Shown here one piece after another: positions 6,675-13,648 of a stretch of DNA of 13,648 bases (position 1 is its first letter; each line of letters starts with the position of its first letter). A model generated the notes under the pieces. The model did not search any database and had not been told where the DNA came from. It saw only the letters and a list, made by a program, of their open reading frames with translations. Made by a program: the position numbers and the translations under genes. The DNA comes from Candidatus Nanopusillus sp. (GTDB lineage: Archaea > Nanobdellota > Nanobdellia > Nanobdellales > Nanobdellaceae), in NCBI GenBank assembly GCA_046533775.1, contig JAWDOO010000012.1, forward strand, positions 1 to 13,648, given 5' to 3'.

Positions 6675-6678
6675 TTTA

Positions 6679-6726
6679 TCAGTTTCCGGGTTCTACATCA
6701 TTTTTCAGCCTATATTTATTCATCAT
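6679..6726 (-). ncRNA. Candidate C/D box sRNA (2'-O-methylation guide)
   Basis: Minus strand reads AUGAUGA(C)-AUAAAUAUAGG(11 nt)-CUGA(D')-AAA-AUGAUGU(C')-AGAACCCGGAAA(12 nt)-CUGA(D). Box order and spacing match archaeal C/D sRNAs. The second guide is 50% GC in a ~25% GC background. The element spans the TatD stop codon and ends 4 nt before the xth ATG. Confidence 0.55.
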
Positions 6727-7477
6727 TATTTATATTATATACTTTAACAAAGTTATTAAATATTATTTCTTCTAACTCTTTCTCATCTATGTCTTTTATT
6801 TCAGATATCTTTTTCAATGAATATATTATTTTCCATGAATTATTTACTGCTTTACCTTTTTCTATTGGATCTAAATATGGAGAATCTGTTTCAGTTAAAA
6901 TAAATTCTAATGGTACATCTTTTACAATTTTTTGAAATCCAGGATCTCTATAAACAATTGCCGGTATTGATAAATAACAATTTATTTCAATTGCTTTATC
7001 TATTAAGGAAGGTTTCCAAAATGTATGCAATACTTTTTTATTATTATAACTTGTTAATATATCTAATACATCTTTTTCAGCTTTTCTAGCATGAATTATT
7101 ACTGGTTTCTTTAATCTATCAGCCAATTCTAAAAATTTTTCAAAATATATTTTTTGTTTTTTAATTTTATCTTCATCTACATTAGAAAAATCCAATCCAA
7201 CTTCTCCAATTGCTAAAAATTTTTTATCCTTATTTTCTTCAATAAATTCAAATGTTTTTTCTATATCATTATCATTCATTTTTTCAATTTCCTCAGGATA
7301 TAATCCTAAAGCATAATATATTATATCATACTTTTTAGATTCTTCAATTACTTTATTTATACTTTCAATATCTATAGAATTTTCAATTATATATTTTACA
7401 TTTCTTTTAATATTTTCCCTTATTTTTTCATCTACATTATTATATAAAAATAGATGTGCATGATCATCAACTATCAT
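6716..7477 (-). CDS. TatD-family metal-dependent hydrolase/DNase
   Basis: N-terminal DDHAHL (HxH metal site), EVGLD, IIHAR, ETDSPYL. Length 253 aa. Only 2 nt separate it from the upstream methyltransferase stop. Confidence 0.82.
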   Translation of the reverse strand: MIVDDHAHLFLYNNVDEKIRENIKRNVKYIIENSIDIESINKVIEESKKYDIIYYALGLYPEEIEKMNDNDIEKTFEFIEENKDKKFLAIGEVGLDFSNVDEDKIKKQKIYFEKFLELADRLKKPVIIHARKAEKDVLDILTSYNNKKVLHTFWKPSLIDKAIEINCYLSIPAIVYRDPGFQKIVKDVPLEFILTETDSPYLDPIEKGKAVNNSWKIIYSLKKISEIKDIDEKELEEIIFNNFVKVYNINNDE

Positions 7478-8178: not shown

Positions 8179-9147
8179 ATGCCAGAGAATGAAATATGGA
8201 CTGAAAAATATAGACCAAAAAAATTGGATGATATAAAAGGACAAGATGAAATAGTAAAAAGATTGAAGGCATTTGTAGAAAATAAAAATATGCCTCATTT
8301 ATTATTTACAGGACCTGCTGGGGTTGGAAAAACAACTGCTGCATTAGCATTGGCAAGAGAATTATATGGAGATAAATGGGAACAAAATGTATTACAATTA
8401 AATGCTTCAGATGATAGAGGAATTGATGTAATAAGAGAAAAGGTAAAGGAATTTGCAAGAACAAAACCAATTGGAGATGTTCCATTCAAAATTATATTTT
8501 TAGATGAAGCAGATGCAATGACAAGAGATGCACAACAAGCTTTGAGAAGAATAATGGAAGAATATTCTTCAGTAACAAGATTTATATTGGCATGTAATTA
8601 TTCATCAAAAATTATAGAACCAATACAATCTAGAACTGTTATATTTAGATTTAAACAATTAGATAAAAAGGATGTATTTGACTTATTAAGATCAATAGCT
8701 GAAAAAGAAAATTTGAATATAAATGATGATGCATTGGAAGCAATATACTATATTTCAGAAGGTGATATGAGAAAATCAATAAATATGTTACAGGCTGCGG
8801 CTTTGTATTCTAAAGATATAACTCCAGAATTAATATATGAAGTTGCTTCTGTAGCAAAACCACAAGAATTACAGGAAGTATTAAAATTAGCATATGAAGG
8901 AAAATTTGTTGAAGCTAGAGAAAAATTAATTGATTTAATGTTAAAATATGGTCTTGCGGGAGAAGATATAATTAAATATCTATCAAAAGAAGTTTATTCG
9001 ATGAATATATCCGAAAAGGAAAAATTAGATATAATATATTATGCTGGAGAAGTAGAATATAGATTGTTAGAAGGTTCAGATCCAATAATACAATTAGGTG
9101 CTTTGCTAGCATATATAGGGCTTAGAGGTTTACAAAGTAGAAAATAA
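8179..9147 (+). CDS. rfcS: Replication factor C small subunit (clamp loader AAA+ ATPase)
   Basis: [13 protein letters not shown] (RFC box II), Walker [10 protein letters not shown], Walker B/DEAD box FLDEADAMT, sensor-1 region ACN, arginine-finger motif QSRT (SRC-motif position). Length 322 aa, no intein. Confidence 0.95.
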
Positions 9148-9482: not shown

Positions 9483-9899
9483 ATGGATATATCAAAGATA
9501 CCAAAATTTGTAATCTGGGTTGGTGTAGCAGCTTTTATATTGGTTGTGCTATATGCAATATATATATATTATGTAACATCCTATTTACCTCCATATTTGG
9601 AATATTTTACATATAGCTGTCAATATGCAAATGGAACATCTCTTATTATAATTACTGCAAAACAAAATTTGGAAAATGTAACAGTATATAATTTCTATGA
9701 AAATTCATCATGCAATTTAGGAAATATAAATTATGGATCTATGAATGCATGTAGTATAAATAATAATATTATTATAATAAATCCATATGTAAGAGTATAC
9801 TATACTGTAAATGGTAATCAATATGAAGCTATTTTACCATGTCAAATAGTTGAAAGTGGTGGTATATTAAGTGGACTTTTCTCTTTATTTAGTCATTAA
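9483..9899 (+). CDS. Small membrane-anchored/secreted Cys-containing protein (138 aa)
   Basis: N-terminal hydrophobic helix FVIWVGVAAFILVVLYAIYIYYV. The remainder has four Cys and three N-X-S/T sequons (NGT, NVT, NSS). Its stop codon (9897..9899) lies inside copy 1 of the array core repeat. Confidence 0.7.
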   Translation: MDISKIPKFVIWVGVAAFILVVLYAIYIYYVTSYLPPYLEYFTYSCQYANGTSLIIITAKQNLENVTVYNFYENSSCNLGNINYGSMNACSINNNIIIINPYVRVYYTVNGNQYEAILPCQIVESGGILSGLFSLFSH

Positions 9900-9920
9900 A
9901 TAAAAATTAAATAAATAAAG
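9895..9920 (-). repeat. Array core repeat, copy 1 (ATTAAATAAAA tandem; T-rich on the minus strand)
   Basis: attaaataaaaattaaataaataaag. Same element at 10835, 11686, 12390 and 13441. It marks the distal boundary of the array. Confidence 0.85.
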
Positions 9921-9922
9921 AT

Positions 9923-9940
9923 CTTATATTTTTATATAAG
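9923..9940. terminator. Perfect 7-bp hairpin (CTTATAT-TTTT-ATATAAG) flanked by T/A runs; likely bidirectional terminator for convergent genes
   Basis: Inverted repeat read directly from the sequence. It is followed on the plus strand by TATTTTTTAT and on the minus strand by the T-rich core. A 6-7 bp version recurs at 11714..11731 downstream of paralogue C. Confidence 0.45.
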
Positions 9941-9969
9941 AACTCTCTATTTTTTATATAACAATTTAT

Positions 9970-10086
9970 CTAATAATTTTTTAACTGCATATATTCTTCA
10001 AATCTTTCTCTATATCTTTCAGGATTTCCAATTAGATATCTTATAGCTGCTTTAATTGCTTTACTCAATTCTAGCCAGGAGTGAGC
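9970..10086 (-). pseudogene. Fossil 3' end of a C-type paralogue (last ~34 codons), out of frame with and directly abutting paralogue A
   Basis: 9921..10056 aligns to 11712..11849 (3' end plus 3' flank of the 182-aa gene) at ~90% by hand. The -1 frame relative to gene A reads AHSWLELSKAIKAAIRYLIGNPERYRERFEEYMQLKNY*, against gene C ...DIKAAIKYLIEDPEKHREKFEEYMQVNKLLDKLLY*. It has no start codon of its own, is bounded upstream by TGA, and two 1-nt indels alter the tail. Confidence 0.8.
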
Positions 10087-10730
10087 TCACATAATTCTCT
10101 AATAAAGGTTTCTAAATTGTCTAATTTCATTAGTTGCATATACTCATCAGGATTACTTAATAGACATTTTATATGGGAGTAAAGATAATTGTATGCAACA
10201 TTCTCTGGTACATACTCTTTAGTTTTCCAATTTAATCCTTGACCATTATAATCTTCAAGAGAGTTCCCTATTTGTTTTAGATAGGAATTAACTAATGAAA
10301 GAGATTTTCCAGAATATACATCCCAATATAATTTAGATAGTTTATTACGTACATTTATCTTCAATAGTAGTTCTAAACCTTTTTCTAAGTTTTGAATCTT
10401 CTGTTTGTAAGTATTATCATGTTCTGTATAAGGTATGTAAATTAGAATATAGTCTCCAATTGCTGAAAATAGTTGAATATAAAAACTATCTATGCTAGTT
10501 TCTTTTACCAATTTTTCTAATTTTGGTAAGACTTCTGGAGCTTTCTCTTTGGCTAGTTTATATAATCTTTCCAATTTTATTGAATATTCATACATCTTAA
10601 GAAATTCATCAAGAAATCCTGAATGTTCATTCTTATTAAGACTTTCTTCAGCTCTTTGTTTAGTCCATCTTATTCTCTTTTCTATTATCTTAGATTGGTT
10701 TTGATTTGAGGATGAGGATTTTCCTTCCAC
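10071..10730 (-). CDS. Array paralogue A (219 aa), uncharacterised all-alpha protein family
   Basis: Long ORF. The only available start is GTG at 10730..10728, because an in-frame stop lies 10 codons upstream. Shares the family motifs RLYKLAKEKAPEVLPKLEKLV, YKQKIQNLE and the C-terminal HIKCLLSNPDEYMQLMK. No signal peptide or TM segment. Confidence 0.8.
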   Translation of the reverse strand: MEGKSSSSNQNQSKIIEKRIRWTKQRAEESLNKNEHSGFLDEFLKMYEYSIKLERLYKLAKEKAPEVLPKLEKLVKETSIDSFYIQLFSAIGDYILIYIPYTEHDNTYKQKIQNLEKGLELLLKINVRNKLSKLYWDVYSGKSLSLVNSYLKQIGNSLEDYNGQGLNWKTKEYVPENVAYNYLYSHIKCLLSNPDEYMQLMKLDNLETFIRELCELTPG

Positions 10731-10753
10731 AAATAAATATATTATTGAAAATG

Positions 10754-10834
10754 ATTTTTAAATATATCGTTAATATCTATCATCAAATAGTAGTTATATC
10801 AATATCTTCTATAAAATATAGTTGTAAATTAGTT
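10754..10834 (-). repeat. Alpha-type 5' flank module, copy 1 (upstream of paralogue A)
   Basis: Together with the adjacent core, 10754..10860 aligns to 12309..12415 with 9 differences in ~108 columns (hand count, ~92%). Its gene-proximal end carries a TATA-like TTTAAAAAT on the minus strand ~25-33 nt from the GTG. Confidence 0.85.
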
Positions 10835-10859
10835 ATTAAATAAAAATTAAATAAAAAAG
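10835..10859 (-). repeat. Array core repeat, copy 2
   Basis: attaaataaaaattaaataaaaaag. It lies 16 nt downstream (minus sense) of the paralogue B stop. Confidence 0.85.
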
Positions 10860-10875
10860 ATTTTATCAAAAAGTC

Positions 10876-11553
10876 TTATGTATTTTGTTTTTCTGTTTTA
10901 CAGTTACAATATAATCTGCATACTGCTATATCAAGCCATCCTAATGGCTTCTTTCCTACATATTTCATAAATTGATCTTCAAGATCTTTAGGTTTCTCCA
11001 AATAATTAGATATAAAAGACTTAATAATTATAGCTGCATCTTCACGTGCTCTTTCTTCCCTTTGAGATGCAGTTTGATATATTTCTGCTATCTTTTCTAA
11101 TGATATTTCCTTTACTTTTTTATAGAGGTTATACAGACCCTTTATTACTTGTTCGTCTTCTAAAGTTTTCAAACTATCCATAAATTCTTTAATTCTTTCT
11201 GGTGTATATTCCAATAAAAGAGTGTCTGCAATACCTTTCATTAAGCTACTCTTAAAGGTATATTCTTCTATACACTGTTCGAGAGATCTTGGATCTATAG
11301 TTGAAAGATTTTTACATTCTCCAAATTTCTCTAGATTTCCTACTAATGTTAAGAATAATGATAAAGCTTGTGGCATATGTTCTGATATTGATGAGAATGT
11401 CCATCTTATTTCGTATAGATAAGATGAGTATGTTTTTATGACTTCCTCAAATTCTTTCATTTCATTATCTTCTTTTATTTTTTCATCTAGTGTTTTGACC
11501 ATAACCTGTATTATATTGAAGAAGTTTTTAAACTTATCGTTGTTTTTTACCAT
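10876..11553 (-). CDS. Array paralogue B (225 aa), same family, Cys-rich C-terminal tail
   Basis: Long ORF with an ATG start. Motifs YLYEI...HMPQALSLFLTLV, GNLEKFGECK and C-terminal AAIIIKSFISNYLEKPKDLEDQFMKYVG, followed by the tail WLDIAVCRLYCNCKTEKQNT. Confidence 0.85.
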   Translation of the reverse strand: MVKNNDKFKNFFNIIQVMVKTLDEKIKEDNEMKEFEEVIKTYSSYLYEIRWTFSSISEHMPQALSLFLTLVGNLEKFGECKNLSTIDPRSLEQCIEEYTFKSSLMKGIADTLLLEYTPERIKEFMDSLKTLEDEQVIKGLYNLYKKVKEISLEKIAEIYQTASQREERAREDAAIIIKSFISNYLEKPKDLEDQFMKYVGKKPLGWLDIAVCRLYCNCKTEKQNT

Positions 11554-11625
11554 AAAATAATAACTATATCTAATATACCTACATATTTTAATATCCTAAT
11601 TAAAAATATAAATAATGGTTGGACC

Positions 11626-11663
11626 ATGGATAAAAAATATACAACAAAAAGGTGGTATATTAA
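11626..11663. repeat. Beta box, copy 1 (upstream region of paralogue B)
   Basis: atggataaaaaatatacaacaaaaaggtggtatattaa aligns with 13381..13416 atggataaaaatatacaacaaaaattagtatattaa. Confidence 0.7.
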
Positions 11664-11685
11664 ATGAATTCATATATTTATTGTC

Positions 11686-11711
11686 ATTAAATAAAAGATT
11701 AAATAAAAAAG
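11686..11711 (-). repeat. Array core repeat, copy 3
   Basis: attaaataaaagattaaataaaaaag, with a one-base insertion between the two 11-mers. Confidence 0.85.
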
Positions 11712-11744
11712 ATTTTATATTTTTATATAAGAATTCCCTATTTT

Positions 11745-12293
11745 TTAATATAATAATTTATCTAATAATTTGTTAACTTGCATATATTCTTCAAACTTTT
11801 CTCTATGTTTTTCAGGATCTTCAATTAGATATTTTATAGCTGCTTTAATGTCTTCAGACGTTTCTTTATATATTTCTTCTAATGAATCATACTTACGTAT
11901 ATTCTTTTGCAATTTTTCTAAGAAAGTTATATATGTTGCATTAAATACTAATCTAGTCGATAAATGTAACATACTATACTCCAAATTATCTACTTTCTTT
12001 TTATAATCTGGTCCTGTAGGATTTATTTTTTCAATATATTCTCTAAAAGCTCTTATTATACTAGCTTTAAATATATCTGATTCTTCTCCTTTCTCGCATA
12101 GGTCACAACTATTTATTCTTCTTAATAGTAGTTCTAATGTTGTTTCAGCTTGTGGTGCTTTTTTTGATATTTCTTCATATAACTTTTTTACTTCTTCTAA
12201 ATAATTTTTATTATCAATTCTATATTCTTCATCTCTTTGGGCTCTTTCTAACATTTTTTCTAATTCTGATAGATATTCACCAGCCATAATCAA
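11745..12293 (-). CDS. Array paralogue C (182 aa), same family
   Basis: Long ORF (start MIMAGEY; the second ATG at 12287 is equally possible). Motifs KLYEEISKKAPQAETTLELLL, SCDLCEKGE, YKKKVDNLE and C-terminal IKAAIKYLIEDPEKHREKFEEYMQVNK. Confidence 0.85.
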   Translation of the reverse strand: MIMAGEYLSELEKMLERAQRDEEYRIDNKNYLEEVKKLYEEISKKAPQAETTLELLLRRINSCDLCEKGEESDIFKASIIRAFREYIEKINPTGPDYKKKVDNLEYSMLHLSTRLVFNATYITFLEKLQKNIRKYDSLEEIYKETSEDIKAAIKYLIEDPEKHREKFEEYMQVNKLLDKLLY

Positions 12294-12308
12294 TTTTTTA
12301 TTAGAAAA

Positions 12309-12389
12309 ATTTTTAATCTATCGTTAATATATATCATCAAATAGTAGCTATATTAATATCTCCTATAAAAATATAGTTGTAAATTAGTC
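12309..12389 (-). repeat. Alpha-type 5' flank module, copy 2 (upstream of paralogue C)
   Basis: See 10754..10834. ~92% identical including the conserved block atcgttaatat.tatcatcaaatagtag.tatat.aatatct.ctataaaa. Confidence 0.85.
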
Positions 12390-12414
12390 ATTAAATAAAA
12401 ACTAAATAAAAAAG
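12390..12414 (-). repeat. Array core repeat, copy 4
   Basis: attaaataaaaactaaataaaaaag. Confidence 0.85.
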
Positions 12415-12477
12415 AATTATATTAATTTATTTTATGAACTATTCCTAATATATTTAATTAATAAACTTTCTATCTTT

Positions 12478-13257
12478 TTAATAAATCCCTTTGAGATATT
12501 TAAGAAATATCCTTTCTATCTTTATATTAAATCCATTCGTATTCTTGCGGAAAAGTTCTTCTATAATATCTTCAATATATTTGGATGCCTTTTGATATGC
12601 TAAGTCGGTCCATTCTATTTGTTTCTGAATATAGTCCTGAATTGCATGAATATAATTTTGAACATCATTAGATGCTTTTAAACGTTTTATTTGTCCAATC
12701 ATTTTATCATTAATTGATGAGTTTTCAGGGGTGCTTAAGATATCGTCTAAGGCATAGTATTCTGTTAACATATAAGCTGCTAATAAGGTTTTATATACTT
12801 CGAGTTTTGATAGAGATCTTAAAACATATAGTATATTCATAATTTCTTTACCATAATTTAGTTGTGTAGTATATAATCCTTCAAGATGTTTATTAATAAT
12901 TCTTATTATATTAGTCTTAAAGTGATTTATATATGTATATTGATAAATAAGTGACCTTTTATGTGGATCATATGGATTTAAATAAGTTTCTTCTTTGCAT
13001 GAAACAGAGTTATCTATCTTTTTTAGTAATTCATCTAGAGTCTTTCCATATACTTCGTATAGTTTGTTGTGTAATTTTTGTAATTCTTTTTGATACTCTT
13101 CATATGAATTTTTTGCATACTCTACTAATTTTTCTCCATATTTTTTTACAAACTCTGTTCCCAATTCTTCTTCATATAAATTCGTCGGCGCTGTACTCAA
13201 TAATTTATATATCCAGAAATAAACCTCTGAATTTAAATTAATGAATTTATCTGACAT
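12478..13257 (-). CDS. Array paralogue D (259 aa), most divergent member of the family
   Basis: Long ORF with an ATG start. Retains KLYEVYGKTLDELLKKIDNSVSCKEE (compare C: KLYEEISKKAPQAETTLELLLRRINSCDLCEKGEE). The C-terminal motif is only weakly recognisable (IHAIQDYIQKQ). Its 3' flank is unique. Confidence 0.8.
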   Translation of the reverse strand: MSDKFINLNSEVYFWIYKLLSTAPTNLYEEELGTEFVKKYGEKLVEYAKNSYEEYQKELQKLHNKLYEVYGKTLDELLKKIDNSVSCKEETYLNPYDPHKRSLIYQYTYINHFKTNIIRIINKHLEGLYTTQLNYGKEIMNILYVLRSLSKLEVYKTLLAAYMLTEYYALDDILSTPENSSINDKMIGQIKRLKASNDVQNYIHAIQDYIQKQIEWTDLAYQKASKYIEDIIEELFRKNTNGFNIKIERIFLKYLKGIY

Positions 13258-13380
13258 ACTTAAATTATTGTTAAAAAAATTTTAAATTTATTGTTTATAC
13301 TGATCACAAAATAGTAACTATAGTAGATACATCCCACGTACTTTAATATTTAGCTTAGAATATATTGTAATGATTAAACT

Positions 13381-13416
13381 ATGGATAAAAATATACAACA
13401 AAAATTAGTATATTAA
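13381..13416. repeat. Beta box, copy 2 (upstream region of paralogue D)
   Basis: See 11626..11663. Confidence 0.7.
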
Positions 13417-13440
13417 GGAGATTTTTCTTCCCATTTGATT

Positions 13441-13464
13441 ATTAAATAAAAATTAAATAAAAAG
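13441..13464 (-). repeat. Array core repeat, copy 5
   Basis: attaaataaaaattaaataaaaag, with the A-run one base shorter than in copies 2-4. Confidence 0.85.
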
Positions 13465-13545
13465 ATTTTATTAAAAAGCCTTATGTATTTTGTTTTTCTG
13501 TTTTATAGTCACAATATAATTTATATGCTGCTATATCAATCTATC

Positions 13546-13648
13546 TTAATGTTTCATTCCTGCATATTTCATAAGTTGATCTTCATTATCTTTAGGATTT
13601 CTGAAATAATCCACTAGAAGATATCTAATACTTTCACCTGCACTTGCA
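13546..13648 (-). CDS. Array paralogue E (B-type), 3' end only; C-terminally truncated relative to B, possibly decaying
   Basis: The minus-strand frame open to the window edge reads ...ASAGESIRYLLVDYFRNPKDNEDQLMKYAGMKH*, against B ...IIIKSFISNYLEKPKDLEDQFMKYVGKKPLGW.... 13465..13610 aligns to 10860..11007 at ~87% (hand count). Not in the ORF track because it is cut by the window end. Confidence 0.55.
   Translation of the reverse strand, partial: ASAGESIRYLLVDYFRNPKDNEDQLMKYAGMKH

Follow-up and report, generated by a model that had tools for sequence, protein, structure and literature searches.

The stretch of DNA considered here (the window) is 13,648 nucleotides (nt) long and makes up one entire contig of a metagenome-assembled genome (MAG) of Candidatus Nanopusillus sp. 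(Nanoarchaeota), with a G+C content of about 24%. From 9900 to 13648 it carries a tandem row of minus-strand genes and spacers, the cassette array. This is probably a hypervariable array of independently transcribed cassettes that are shuffled by homologous recombination at their spacers and 3' ends, with diversifying or relaxed selection acting on the gene bodies. The window holds one end of the array: the right-hand boundary is p138, a 138-amino-acid (aa) gene on the plus strand (9483..9899) whose product has one N-terminal transmembrane helix and which converges on the array, and at the other end the contig stops inside the fifth gene, E.

The array elements, all on the minus strand, are described here from p138 onward, with the genes assigned to subfamilies (F01, F02 and so on) clustered at 45% identity or more. 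A terminal copy of a T-rich core (9889..9927) overlaps the p138 stop codon and reads CTTTATTTATTTAATTTTTATTTAATGAC on the cassette strand; it is a putative terminator common to the last cassette and the convergent p138. Next comes a remnant of the 3' end of an F04-type (C-type) cassette (9921..10068), including a flank with a hairpin and a T-run; it translates as LSKAIKAAIRYLIGNPERYRERFEEYMQLKNY followed by a stop (32 codons, 10068-9970), a peptide 68% identical to the C terminus of gene C. Gene A (10071..10730; F01, 219 aa, GTG start) has homologs that sit elsewhere in the arrays of other strains, for example in first place at locus L001 (70% nt identity). It is separated from gene B by a short "alpha" spacer (10731..10875) with a core at 10832-10855 and a promoter consisting of a dyad plus a BRE/TATA-like element at 10755-10796 (51.3 bits with a position weight matrix, PWM), from which most of the boundary fossils described below are missing. 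Gene B (10876..11502; F12) has a C-terminal tail ending in LGWLDIAVCRLYCNCKTEKQNT. A mechanical open reading frame (ORF) runs 17 codons further, to 11553, but the promoter motif at 11525-11566 falls within this extension. Because the TATA box would then lie inside the gene, ATG 11502 (MVKTLDEK...) is probably the true start; translation from it gives a 208-aa protein 100% identical to database protein P0115, and F02 homologs also begin with MVKTLDEK.

Between C and B lies a full "beta" spacer (11503..11744), which on the plus strand is made up, in order, of the B promoter (motif 11525-11566), a copy of the promoter of the RFC large-subunit gene, a fossil of the 5' end of that gene (11615-11650, ATGGTTGGACCATGGATAAAAAATAT...), a fossil of the 3' end of p138 (11651-11692, ...GGTGGTATATTAA...TCATTAA) and the core (11683-11718). 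Gene C (11745..12287; F04, 180 aa, NCBI locus RXQ68_03185) is followed by an alpha spacer (12288..12477; promoter motif 12309-12350, 45.2 bits; core 12390-12410) and by gene D (12478..13257; F06, 259 aa), which has 84% nt identity to the second cassette of L001. A 46-nt tandem duplication (12450-12541, 78% identity) spans the stop codon of gene D, one 46-nt unit being present twice across the end of D and the adjoining sequence, in the D-proximal part of the spacer. The beta spacer between E and D (13258..13545) has a promoter motif at 13279-13320, an RFC large-subunit 5' fossil from 13370, a p138 3' fossil at about 13408-13445, a core at 13441-13461 and, at 13465-13545, a now non-coding fossil of a cysteine-containing tail (Cys-tail; the B-type 3' module). 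Only the 3' end of gene E (13546..13648; F03 type, ending in YFRNPKDNEDQLMKYAGMKH, stop codon at 13546) is present before the contig end cuts the gene, and this ending is that of the F03 genes L006_2, L019_4 and L026_2.

How alike are the flanks, and how different the genes between them? The sequence-only reading, made before the present analysis, had aligned three pairs of flanks by hand, at about 92%, 90% and 87% identity. Global alignment gave 91.7% (99/108 columns) for 10754-10860 against 12309-12415, 89.9% (124/138) for 9921-10056 against 11712-11849 and 85.2% (127/149) for 10860-11007 against 13465-13610, compared with 55-59% for shuffled-sequence controls (maximum 64.5%). In a sensitive blastn search of the region against the window, 9858-10056 and 11651-11849 matched at 87.6% over 202 nt, 10732-10863 and 12288-12418 at 88.1% over 134 nt, and 10833-11006 and 13439-13610 at 87.4% over 175 nt; a fourth, weaker beta pair (11510-11718 and 13264-13471) matched at 72.7% over 216 nt. 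The gene bodies, by contrast, yielded a single blastn match (C against D, 70.7% over 82 nt), and their global alignments, at 54-57% identity, scarcely differ from those of shuffled sequences (52-55%); the proteins are 21-25% identical pairwise. A sliding profile of unit C against unit A falls from 92/92/87% in the 5' flank to 42-53% in the body and rises again to 85-90% in the 3' flank, which bears out the claim that the bodies are unalignable beside conserved flanks (this pair alone was used; free end gaps mis-registered some others, such as D-B and B-A). The module map drawn earlier, E-D-C-B-A with alpha or beta 5' modules and B- or C-type 3' modules, was likewise correct. Mosaic flanks around unrelated-looking bodies, a pattern unlike that of simple duplication and drift, are thus upheld, and the number and order of cassettes in other strains extend the observation.

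The conserved flanks owe their origin to p138 and the RFC large-subunit gene (rfcL), between which the array lies, since the spacers, judged by sequence comparison, are evidently copies of the ends of these genes, a point that had been overlooked. Read on the strand opposite to the cassettes, a beta spacer begins with a copy of the region of about 112 nt that separates rfcL from the first cassette. This leads into ATGGTTGAACCATGGATAAAAATAT..., the counterpart of the rfcL start (in the true gene ATGGTTGAACCATGGATAAAAAAATAT, encoding MVEPWIKKY), and then into ...GGTATATTAAGTGGACTTTTCTCTTTATTTAGTCATTAA, the counterpart of the p138 end (GILSGLFSLFSH and stop; true 3' end GGTGGTATATTAAGTGGACTTTTCTCTTTATTTAGTCATTAA), after which comes the T-rich core. 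What the spacers keep of the boundaries is thus ~42 nt from the end of p138, ~36 nt from the start of rfcL and a divergent promoter region of ~112 nt; the gene-end fossils of the window lie at 11615-11692 and 13370-13445. At each such internal junction the right boundary of the array is joined to the left, which points to tandem duplication of a segment that extended into the genes on both sides. All beta spacers have the same breakpoints and so stem from one founding event. A functional small ORF, joining the N terminus of the rfcL product to the C terminus of that of p138, was considered and rejected: it would encode 4-43 aa, and its frame is broken in most copies. Because the fusion ORF is intact in few copies only, the boundary pieces are fossils and not genes. 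The alpha spacers (10731-10875 and 12288-12477) lack most of the fossils, though the core, the promoter and the final ~10 nt of p138 are present, and we infer that they are deletion derivatives of beta spacers. The long spacers also carry a well-conserved copy of the rfcL promoter (e.g., 11566-11650 and 13320-13405, plus strand) facing the 3' end of the upstream cassette; such copies might give rise to antisense RNA and thereby influence which cassettes are expressed.

Every cassette carries a promoter module of its own. The consensus of 67 aligned upstream regions (...tATAatTacTATtTnnTaaTAgATAntAACgATAnaTTTAAAAattTTTctAAtAataanTttAnTATG) is strongly conserved whatever the gene, and includes a dyad of the CTATCT-N4-AGATAG type (best copies CTATCTAGTAATAGATAG) directly upstream of the BRE/TATA-like element, with the start codon about 23 nt after the TATA. 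By what is generally known of archaeal promoters, this spacing would imply leaderless or near-leaderless transcripts. A 42-nt promoter PWM finds one match per cassette, at 32-59 bits, and at a threshold of 18 bits finds none elsewhere in 236 kb of related loci. The T-rich core, (C)TTTTTTATTTAATTTTTATTTAATGAC, stands behind most cassettes, where its 24 nt are 92-100% conserved, and would fit an archaeal oligo-T terminator. Several spacer types are without it, namely those following F07 and F01 and variants of those following F02. In the window, its 21-nt form occurs four times (five with a variant), always in the array, against 0.06 expected by chance. Across 185,579 GTDB species genomes, the exact degenerate core 24-mer occurs in three nanoarchaeal records, each time at this locus, and in four bacterial records, which are taken as chance matches; it was not found in IMG/VR. 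Within these scans the flanks did not behave as generic promoter or terminator sequences placed beside unrelated genes.

The array varies greatly between strains. The comparison set consisted of 69 loci from JGI metagenomes, anchored on the RFC small-subunit gene (rfcS, 8179..9147 on the plus strand of the window, outside the array), with further loci obtained by exact-protein look-ups and by a core-pattern scan of GTDB genomes. In all of the roughly 35 close loci, defined by 95% or more identity of the RFC small subunit to that of the window, the array sits at the same site, between p138 and rfcL, and holds one to six cassettes drawn from at least 16 subfamilies in almost any order. The order is F03(E) F06(D) F04(C) F12(B) F01(A) in the window, F01 F06 F07 F04 F02 in L001 and F02 F04 F03 F16 F01 in L004; L017 has F03 F05 F04 and L049 has F03 F04 F05, and single cassettes are found in L018 and L050 (F05) and in L043 (F10). 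The housekeeping parts of the window and L001 are 95.4% identical over 9.1 kb, and the cassettes that they have in common, at 70-84% identity, occupy different positions. L030 and L031 are 97% identical over 2.7 kb and differ in one terminal cassette. Different arrays also occur within one metagenome (L013, L030 and L036 in Ga0081473; L019 and L022 in Ga0081534). Very divergent members of the family were found at this locus as well (L082), and wherever the context was available the family was located here. In the closed PacBio/MiSeq genome of N. acidilobi, Nps_02350 (RFC large subunit) and Nps_02375 (RFC small subunit) enclose Nps_02355, 02360, 02365 and 02370, and the Nst1 orthologs of Nps_02355 and Nps_02360 (466 and 464) stand in the opposite order (PMC4935971 Suppl. 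Data 1).

The more distant relatives show what the locus looks like without an array. In L039, with an RFC small subunit 74% identical to that of the window, only 12 nt separate a p138 homolog from rfcL on the same strand, without an array (L039:3837-5813), and in relatives with about 50% RFC identity rfcS is directly followed by rfcL. Because these genes abut in distant relatives, the array is best seen as a lineage-specific insertion that split an rfcS-p138-rfcL operon. From the sequences, the insertion appears to be recent and would have obliged rfcL to acquire a promoter of its own. The RFC genes are directly consecutive on one strand, with or without a p138 homolog, in the distant Nanoarchaeota L039, L046, L047, L048 and L052.

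Among junction pairs from different strains, 6 have both neighbouring genes in common, 196 have one and 799 have neither. The best matches of a spacer are spacers of other strains, often with the same upstream gene and a different downstream gene. For example, the F02-to-F04 spacer of L004 is 95% identical to the F02-to-F03 spacer of L036 and also precedes F08 (L022) and F06 (L028), and alpha spacers are found behind F03, F06, F12 and F16 and ahead of F01, F03 and F04. That one and the same spacer, at 92-95% identity, precedes different genes in different strains supports recombination at the flanks, one of the explanations offered by the sequence-only reading. Over the left ~130 nt of 26 aligned beta spacers, identities are 67/81/94/76/72/74/62% for those with the same upstream gene, against a background of 46/58/85/75/70/66/48%; from about -90 to -50, spacers with the same downstream gene are slightly more alike, and the fossil block is equally conserved in all classes. 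Since linkage to the upstream and downstream gene changes along the spacer in this way, the exchanges fall within the spacer and not at one fixed point. The breakpoint between L030 and L031 lies at the F01 stop codon.

The 3' ends of the genes tell a similar story. The Cys-tail (...LDxAxCxLYGGCKTEKQNT and stop) ends F03, F05 and F12 genes and is in frame in some copies; in others, including E of the window, it is a non-coding fossil behind a premature stop, still about 85-87% identical to the coding copy of B. The remnant after gene A is a chimera, in which the tail that follows F01 genes in L019, L022 and L030 (TTGAGTAAAGCAATTAAA..., matching the first 18 nt of the remnant) is joined at ATTAAA to the 3' end of an F04 gene. 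Loss of most of a downstream cassette, by deletion or recombination, would leave such a pattern. The earlier proposal that the interior of a C-like gene had been replaced at this point does not hold, gene A having its own complete C-terminal motif and stop codon; the C-type fossil behind it is present, as had been noticed, but it is an appended remnant and not the end of A itself.

How fast do the cassettes evolve? By the Nei-Gojobori method, applied to all within-subfamily pairs, the median ratio of nonsynonymous to synonymous substitution rates (dN/dS) is 0.61 for F01, 0.72 for F04, 0.73 for F03, 0.91 for F06, 1.06 for both F02 and F07 and 1.39 for F05, and 0.32 and 0.77 for two small subfamilies with three pairs each. 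For the neighbouring genes it is 0.08 (rfcS), 0.12 (rfcL), 0.15 (p104, a 104-aa ORF) and 0.18 (p138, which is kept at every related locus with 82-96% amino-acid identity). Median dS, on the other hand, is 0.19-0.49 for cassettes and 0.23-0.28 for neighbours. Cassette proteins thus change 5-15 times faster than those of the neighbours at about equal silent change, and the window's own cassettes show the same pattern. In sliding windows, pN/pS (the corresponding ratio of nonsynonymous to synonymous differences) is about 0.5-2.2 along the whole cassette length in F02, F04, F01 and F06. The two components covary along the genes (in F02, pN and pS are about 0.08-0.10 and 0.05-0.09 in codons 91-120, and about 0.31-0.35 and 0.23-0.31 in codons 61-90), which suggests mosaic alleles assembled from segments of different ages. 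Being shared between strains, the subfamilies predate them. The flanks of different subfamilies, however, differ no more than silent sites do between strains, so the flanks must either be under constraint, which is unlikely for the broken fossils, or coalesce through recombination at a much more recent date than the bodies.

These observations can be arranged into a plausible course of events. A founder gene in opposite orientation would have split the rfcS-p138-rfcL operon, and tandem duplication of a segment reaching into both neighbours would have produced the first junction, which later copies inherited. The resulting spacers, 145-290 nt long and 75-97% identical, would together with the conserved 3' coding ends provide the homology for RadA-dependent recombination. 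This could take the form of unequal crossing-over, loop-out deletion, gene conversion or exchange between co-occurring strains, and its outcome would be cassettes that are added, deleted, reordered and spliced. The proteins that such a process needs are to hand in N. acidilobi, where RadA ranks 14 in the proteome and Hjc is encoded (PMC4935971 Suppl. Data 1). The flanks would appear too conserved for two reasons: recent coalescence through recombination and, in part, their role as working promoter and terminator. The bodies would be old allelic lineages with fast amino-acid divergence, most plausibly under diversifying selection on a stable helical scaffold, probably at an interface with host or virus.

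Could the flanks be similar without any recombination? They might simply be held by purifying selection as promoters and terminators, the bodies having drifted after ancient duplications. Conservation of the promoter consensus in 67 of 67 copies, and the resemblance of the T-rich core to an archaeal oligo-T terminator, are what this explanation would predict, but it does not account for cassette order and number that differ between near-identical strains, for identical spacers ahead of different genes or for fossils that are broken yet conserved. Nor does it account for 85-90% identity where one copy is a non-coding remnant and the other is coding (the Cys-tail after E against B, the F04 tail after A against C), and the covariation of pN and pS would go unexplained; it is therefore considered unlikely. 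A site-specific system of the integron type, in which the core would be the recombination site and a recombinase would excise and insert cassettes as circles, does address the shuffling: the cassettes act as independent units in near-random order, most have the conserved core behind them, and a junction of right to left boundary would also be expected in a circularised unit. However, Pfam searches found no integrase (IntI-type) among the ORFs of the window or within 10 kb on either side of the array in L001, L002 and L004, and the single integrase gene of N. acidilobi (Nps_00600, arCOG01241) is far from Nps_02350-02375 in a gene table that lists neither a transposase nor a reverse transcriptase. 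The cassettes are individually equipped with promoters, instead of being promoterless and read from a common Pc, and the core is missing from several spacer types. In the core itself (TTTATTTAATTTTTATTTAATGAC) no attC-like imperfect palindrome is found by sequence, single-strand folding not having been computed, and it shows symmetry only together with the p138 stop region, in the form of an 8-bp inverted repeat made up of A and T. Breakpoints, moreover, are not fixed, as L030 and L031 show, and linkage decays gradually across the spacer. Such a system thus appears quite improbable here.

The arrays might also be an artefact, with metagenome assembly having shuffled them across repeated spacers and the window contig being a chimera. 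Contigs do break within the array, both in the window and in L004, as happens when repeats interrupt assembly, and spacers of this length and similarity could cause it. Yet the same array was obtained in three independent assemblies (L001 = L002 = L012), the single-cell genomes L005 (Nst1) and L009 (SCGC AB-777_F03) and a MAG have arrays that differ from each other, and the closed N. acidilobi genome has cassette orthologs in swapped order relative to Nst1; the contrast between flanks and bodies in the window is independent of assembly order in any case. As a general explanation, an artefact of this kind is very unlikely. Scarcely any credence can be given to a mechanism, such as a diversity-generating retroelement (DGR), that would direct hypermutation to the bodies, with the conserved 3' ends serving as template and variable repeats. 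Conserved blocks do lie at gene 3' ends, the usual place of DGR variable repeats, and DGRs have been reported from some DPANN archaea. But there is no reverse transcriptase in the window, in the locus flanks examined or in the N. acidilobi gene list, and among the mismatches of the three repeat pairs transitions and transversions are mixed in both directions, with no specificity for adenine. The divergent part is also the body and not the repeat, with a dS in the bodies as high as that of the neighbouring genes. In the preferred reading, the shuffling of the array involves neither an integrase nor a reverse transcriptase.

Homologous recombination at spacers and 3' ends thus remains the favored explanation, and several points must be set against it. 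The recombination is read from sequence comparison. Most comparison loci are short-read metagenome contigs, and for individual contigs strain-chimeric assembly across spacers of 75-97% identity is possible. Several cassettes are truncated or split (L037, L015, L022, L004_5), and because some are clearly decaying the family turns over by birth and death. The spacers are not generally homogenised within genomes: similarity is 0.592 for junctions of one genome and 0.583 for junctions of different genomes (permutation p = 0.37), and locally homogenised pairs were found in three genomes (L017, L054 and L004). Without such an excess, gene conversion between the spacers of one genome is not the main force, contrary to one of the suggestions made earlier. 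A dN/dS near 1 over the full length also fits relaxed constraint, not only positive selection; of the strong diversifying selection proposed for the proteins, the very fast evolution is supported (dN/dS 0.6-1.4 against 0.08-0.18), and either kind of selection may underlie it. Finally, the proteins have no match in Pfam, NCBIfam, PADLOC, PHROGs or PDB sequence profiles beyond noise, and Foldseek gave no significant match in PDB or BFVD. What stands of the earlier interpretation as a whole is the mosaic, the recombination at flanks and the fast proteins; general gene conversion and the body swap at gene A do not.

What do the cassettes encode? Their proteins are homologous, since hhalign links the 10 subfamilies with at least two members into a connected network (F01-F02 99.6%, F03-F05 100%, F04-F07 96.9%, F06-F11 98.1%, F05-F07 94.9%, among others). 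They form an orphan, all-alpha family of roughly 180-260 aa that is confined to Nanopusillus/Nanobsidianus-type Nanoarchaeota. When 1.84 billion cluster representatives were searched with a profile, 55 clusters were returned, and apart from two marginal false positives all belong to this family. AlphaFold2 gave confident ten-helix models for F04 (gene C; all-alpha, predicted local distance difference test score (pLDDT) 92.6) and F02 (pLDDT 95.2). At 24% G+C a stop is expected every ~11 codons, and 180 open codons would arise by chance with p ~4e-8; the ORFs, of 180-400 aa, are maintained. The F03 cassettes of about 400 aa (L004:10785-11918, L006:1709-2902, L009:4846-6039 and others) are head-to-tail fusions of two family domains, and the family profile matches twice in P0124. 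A viral origin was considered and rejected, neither the family nor the core having been found in IMG/VR.

At least one member appears to be made in quantity. Nps_02355, next to the RFC large-subunit gene of N. acidilobi, accounted for 0.44% of spectra (rank 55 of 656 proteins), and Nps_02360 was undetected (PMC4935971 Suppl. Data 1). That Nps_02355 belongs to the family we infer from its position and from the identity of Nst1_466 with the F05 ORF of L005. Detection of one of the two N. acidilobi cassettes is only a hint toward switching, and in the array no homopolymer or repeat tract and no invertible element or promoter is visible that could act as a phase-variation switch. No N-terminal hydrophobic segment, signal peptide, lipobox or transmembrane segment is visible in the cassette translations, and surface exposure is therefore not indicated; the transmembrane-domain and signal-peptide columns for Nps_02355 and Nps_02360 are likewise empty (PMC4935971 Suppl. 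Data 1). As a working hypothesis, the cassettes may form a variable repertoire at the interface of symbiont and host, or of symbiont and virus, in keeping with the evolutionary pattern and the lifestyle. More specifically, but only tentatively, they could be a strain-specific repertoire, cytoplasmic or delivered to the host, that is diversified by recombination and positive selection in an arms race with the crenarchaeal host or with nanoarchaeal viruses.

The surroundings of the array are ordinary. Between 1 and 9900 the window encodes tRNA-Val, an Fe-S assembly protein, thioredoxin reductase, a thioredoxin-domain protein, a DUF763 protein, aldehyde dehydrogenase, an Exo III-like nuclease, TatD, a methyltransferase and the RFC small subunit, followed on the plus strand by p104, which lies between rfcS and p138, and by p138 itself. 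The neighbours of the array are RFC subunits, p138, p104, methyltransferase, TatD, ribosomal proteins and similar genes, and Pfam scans of neighbours revealed no toxin gene with a variable C-terminal domain and no secretion apparatus in the locus. By gene order and Nst1 ortholog numbering, p138 is the counterpart of N. acidilobi Nps_02365, which is assigned to arCOG05419 and has one transmembrane domain (PMC4935971 Suppl. Data 1). An Rfam search found no RNA element in the array. Elsewhere in the window, where 41 nt separate the Exo III-like gene from the TatD gene, there is a weak match to the archaeal C/D-box small RNA (sRNA) family sR9 (6677-6730, minus strand; 26.3 bits, E = 0.084, below the gathering score of 36), which could be a real guide sRNA. 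About 1.5 kb past rfcL, L001 has a 549-aa gene (L001:3763-5412) whose positional counterpart in the N. acidilobi table, Nps_02340, is annotated as "archaeal flagella assembly protein J" (PMC4935971 Suppl. Data 1). A FlaJ/TadC homolog has been flagged as diversifying in Nanoarchaeota (Jarett et al. 2018, PMC6142677), so two fast-evolving features, this homolog and the cassette array, may be neighbours.

Why keep such an array? Nanoarchaeota have genomes of about 0.6 Mb, pared to essentials, and yet up to six copies, or about 1% of the genome, are kept at one site, with at least one member abundantly expressed in the only cultured relative. This makes the array an obvious candidate for the dialogue of DPANN symbionts with their hosts or viruses, and it could serve as a strain marker. 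It also illustrates neatly how, in nature, cassettes can come to form an array and be reshuffled without a dedicated recombinase, the tandem duplication having turned copies of neighbouring gene ends into portable homology arms. If the arms-race repertoire proved true, the array would correspond, in an archaeon, to the variable effector or antigen families known from parasites and might have a part in host range.

No description of this locus was found in the literature searched, and its nearest parallels must be sought in other systems. Recombinase-associated acquired interbacterial defence (rAID) clusters have reportedly been described (Ross et al. 2019), and with these and other orphan-immunity arrays the Nanopusillus locus shares strain-variable rows of small, fast-evolving genes, displaced 3'-end remnants left behind, and conserved intergenic or 3'-end sequences that promote recombinational exchange. 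Unlike them, it has no toxin, secretion-system or recombinase gene in it or nearby, and all of its cassettes are homologous; none has a PADLOC or Pfam immunity-family match. Orphan immunity genes and toxin-tip cassettes of polymorphic-toxin loci are treated by Zhang et al. 2012 (PMC3482391). The array also resembles an integron in being a one-directional row of small genes, mostly without known function, with a short conserved element after each and with a length and order that vary between strains. Integrons have reportedly been described in archaea too (Ghaly et al. 2022). The Nanopusillus array differs from them in having no IntI-type integrase or attI/attC sites, in the separate promoter of each cassette, in drawing all cassettes from one protein superfamily and in its diffuse breakpoints.

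Closest are the recombining multigene families of host-associated bacteria, such as the Borrelia PFam54/lp54 and other lipoprotein loci and the Mycoplasma vsp/vlp loci, which consist of tandem recombining paralogs with conserved flanks and divergent bodies. As in these, there are tandem paralogs at a single locus, each with a near-identical promoter and 5' region, bodies that have diverged almost beyond alignment, a copy number and content that vary between strains, signs of recombination and a raised dN/dS, all in an obligate symbiont or parasite with a tiny genome. On the other hand, the bearer of the array is an archaeon, its proteins have no signal peptide, lipobox or transmembrane segment, no phase-variation switch was seen, and its spacers are fossils of two neighbouring housekeeping genes; a Foldseek resemblance to Borrelia BBA65/BBA69 was not significant (prob 0.08-0.13). 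Loci of this kind are treated in a recent work on Borrelia (PMC11389397). Of the features of a contingency-type family, the array has the tandem paralogs, the variable number and order, the mosaic flanks and the accelerated amino-acid evolution; surface-exposed or secreted products are not indicated by sequence, there being no N-terminal hydrophobic segment. The array belongs, then, to the hypervariable multigene families, and is one in which the conserved spacers copy the array's own boundaries.

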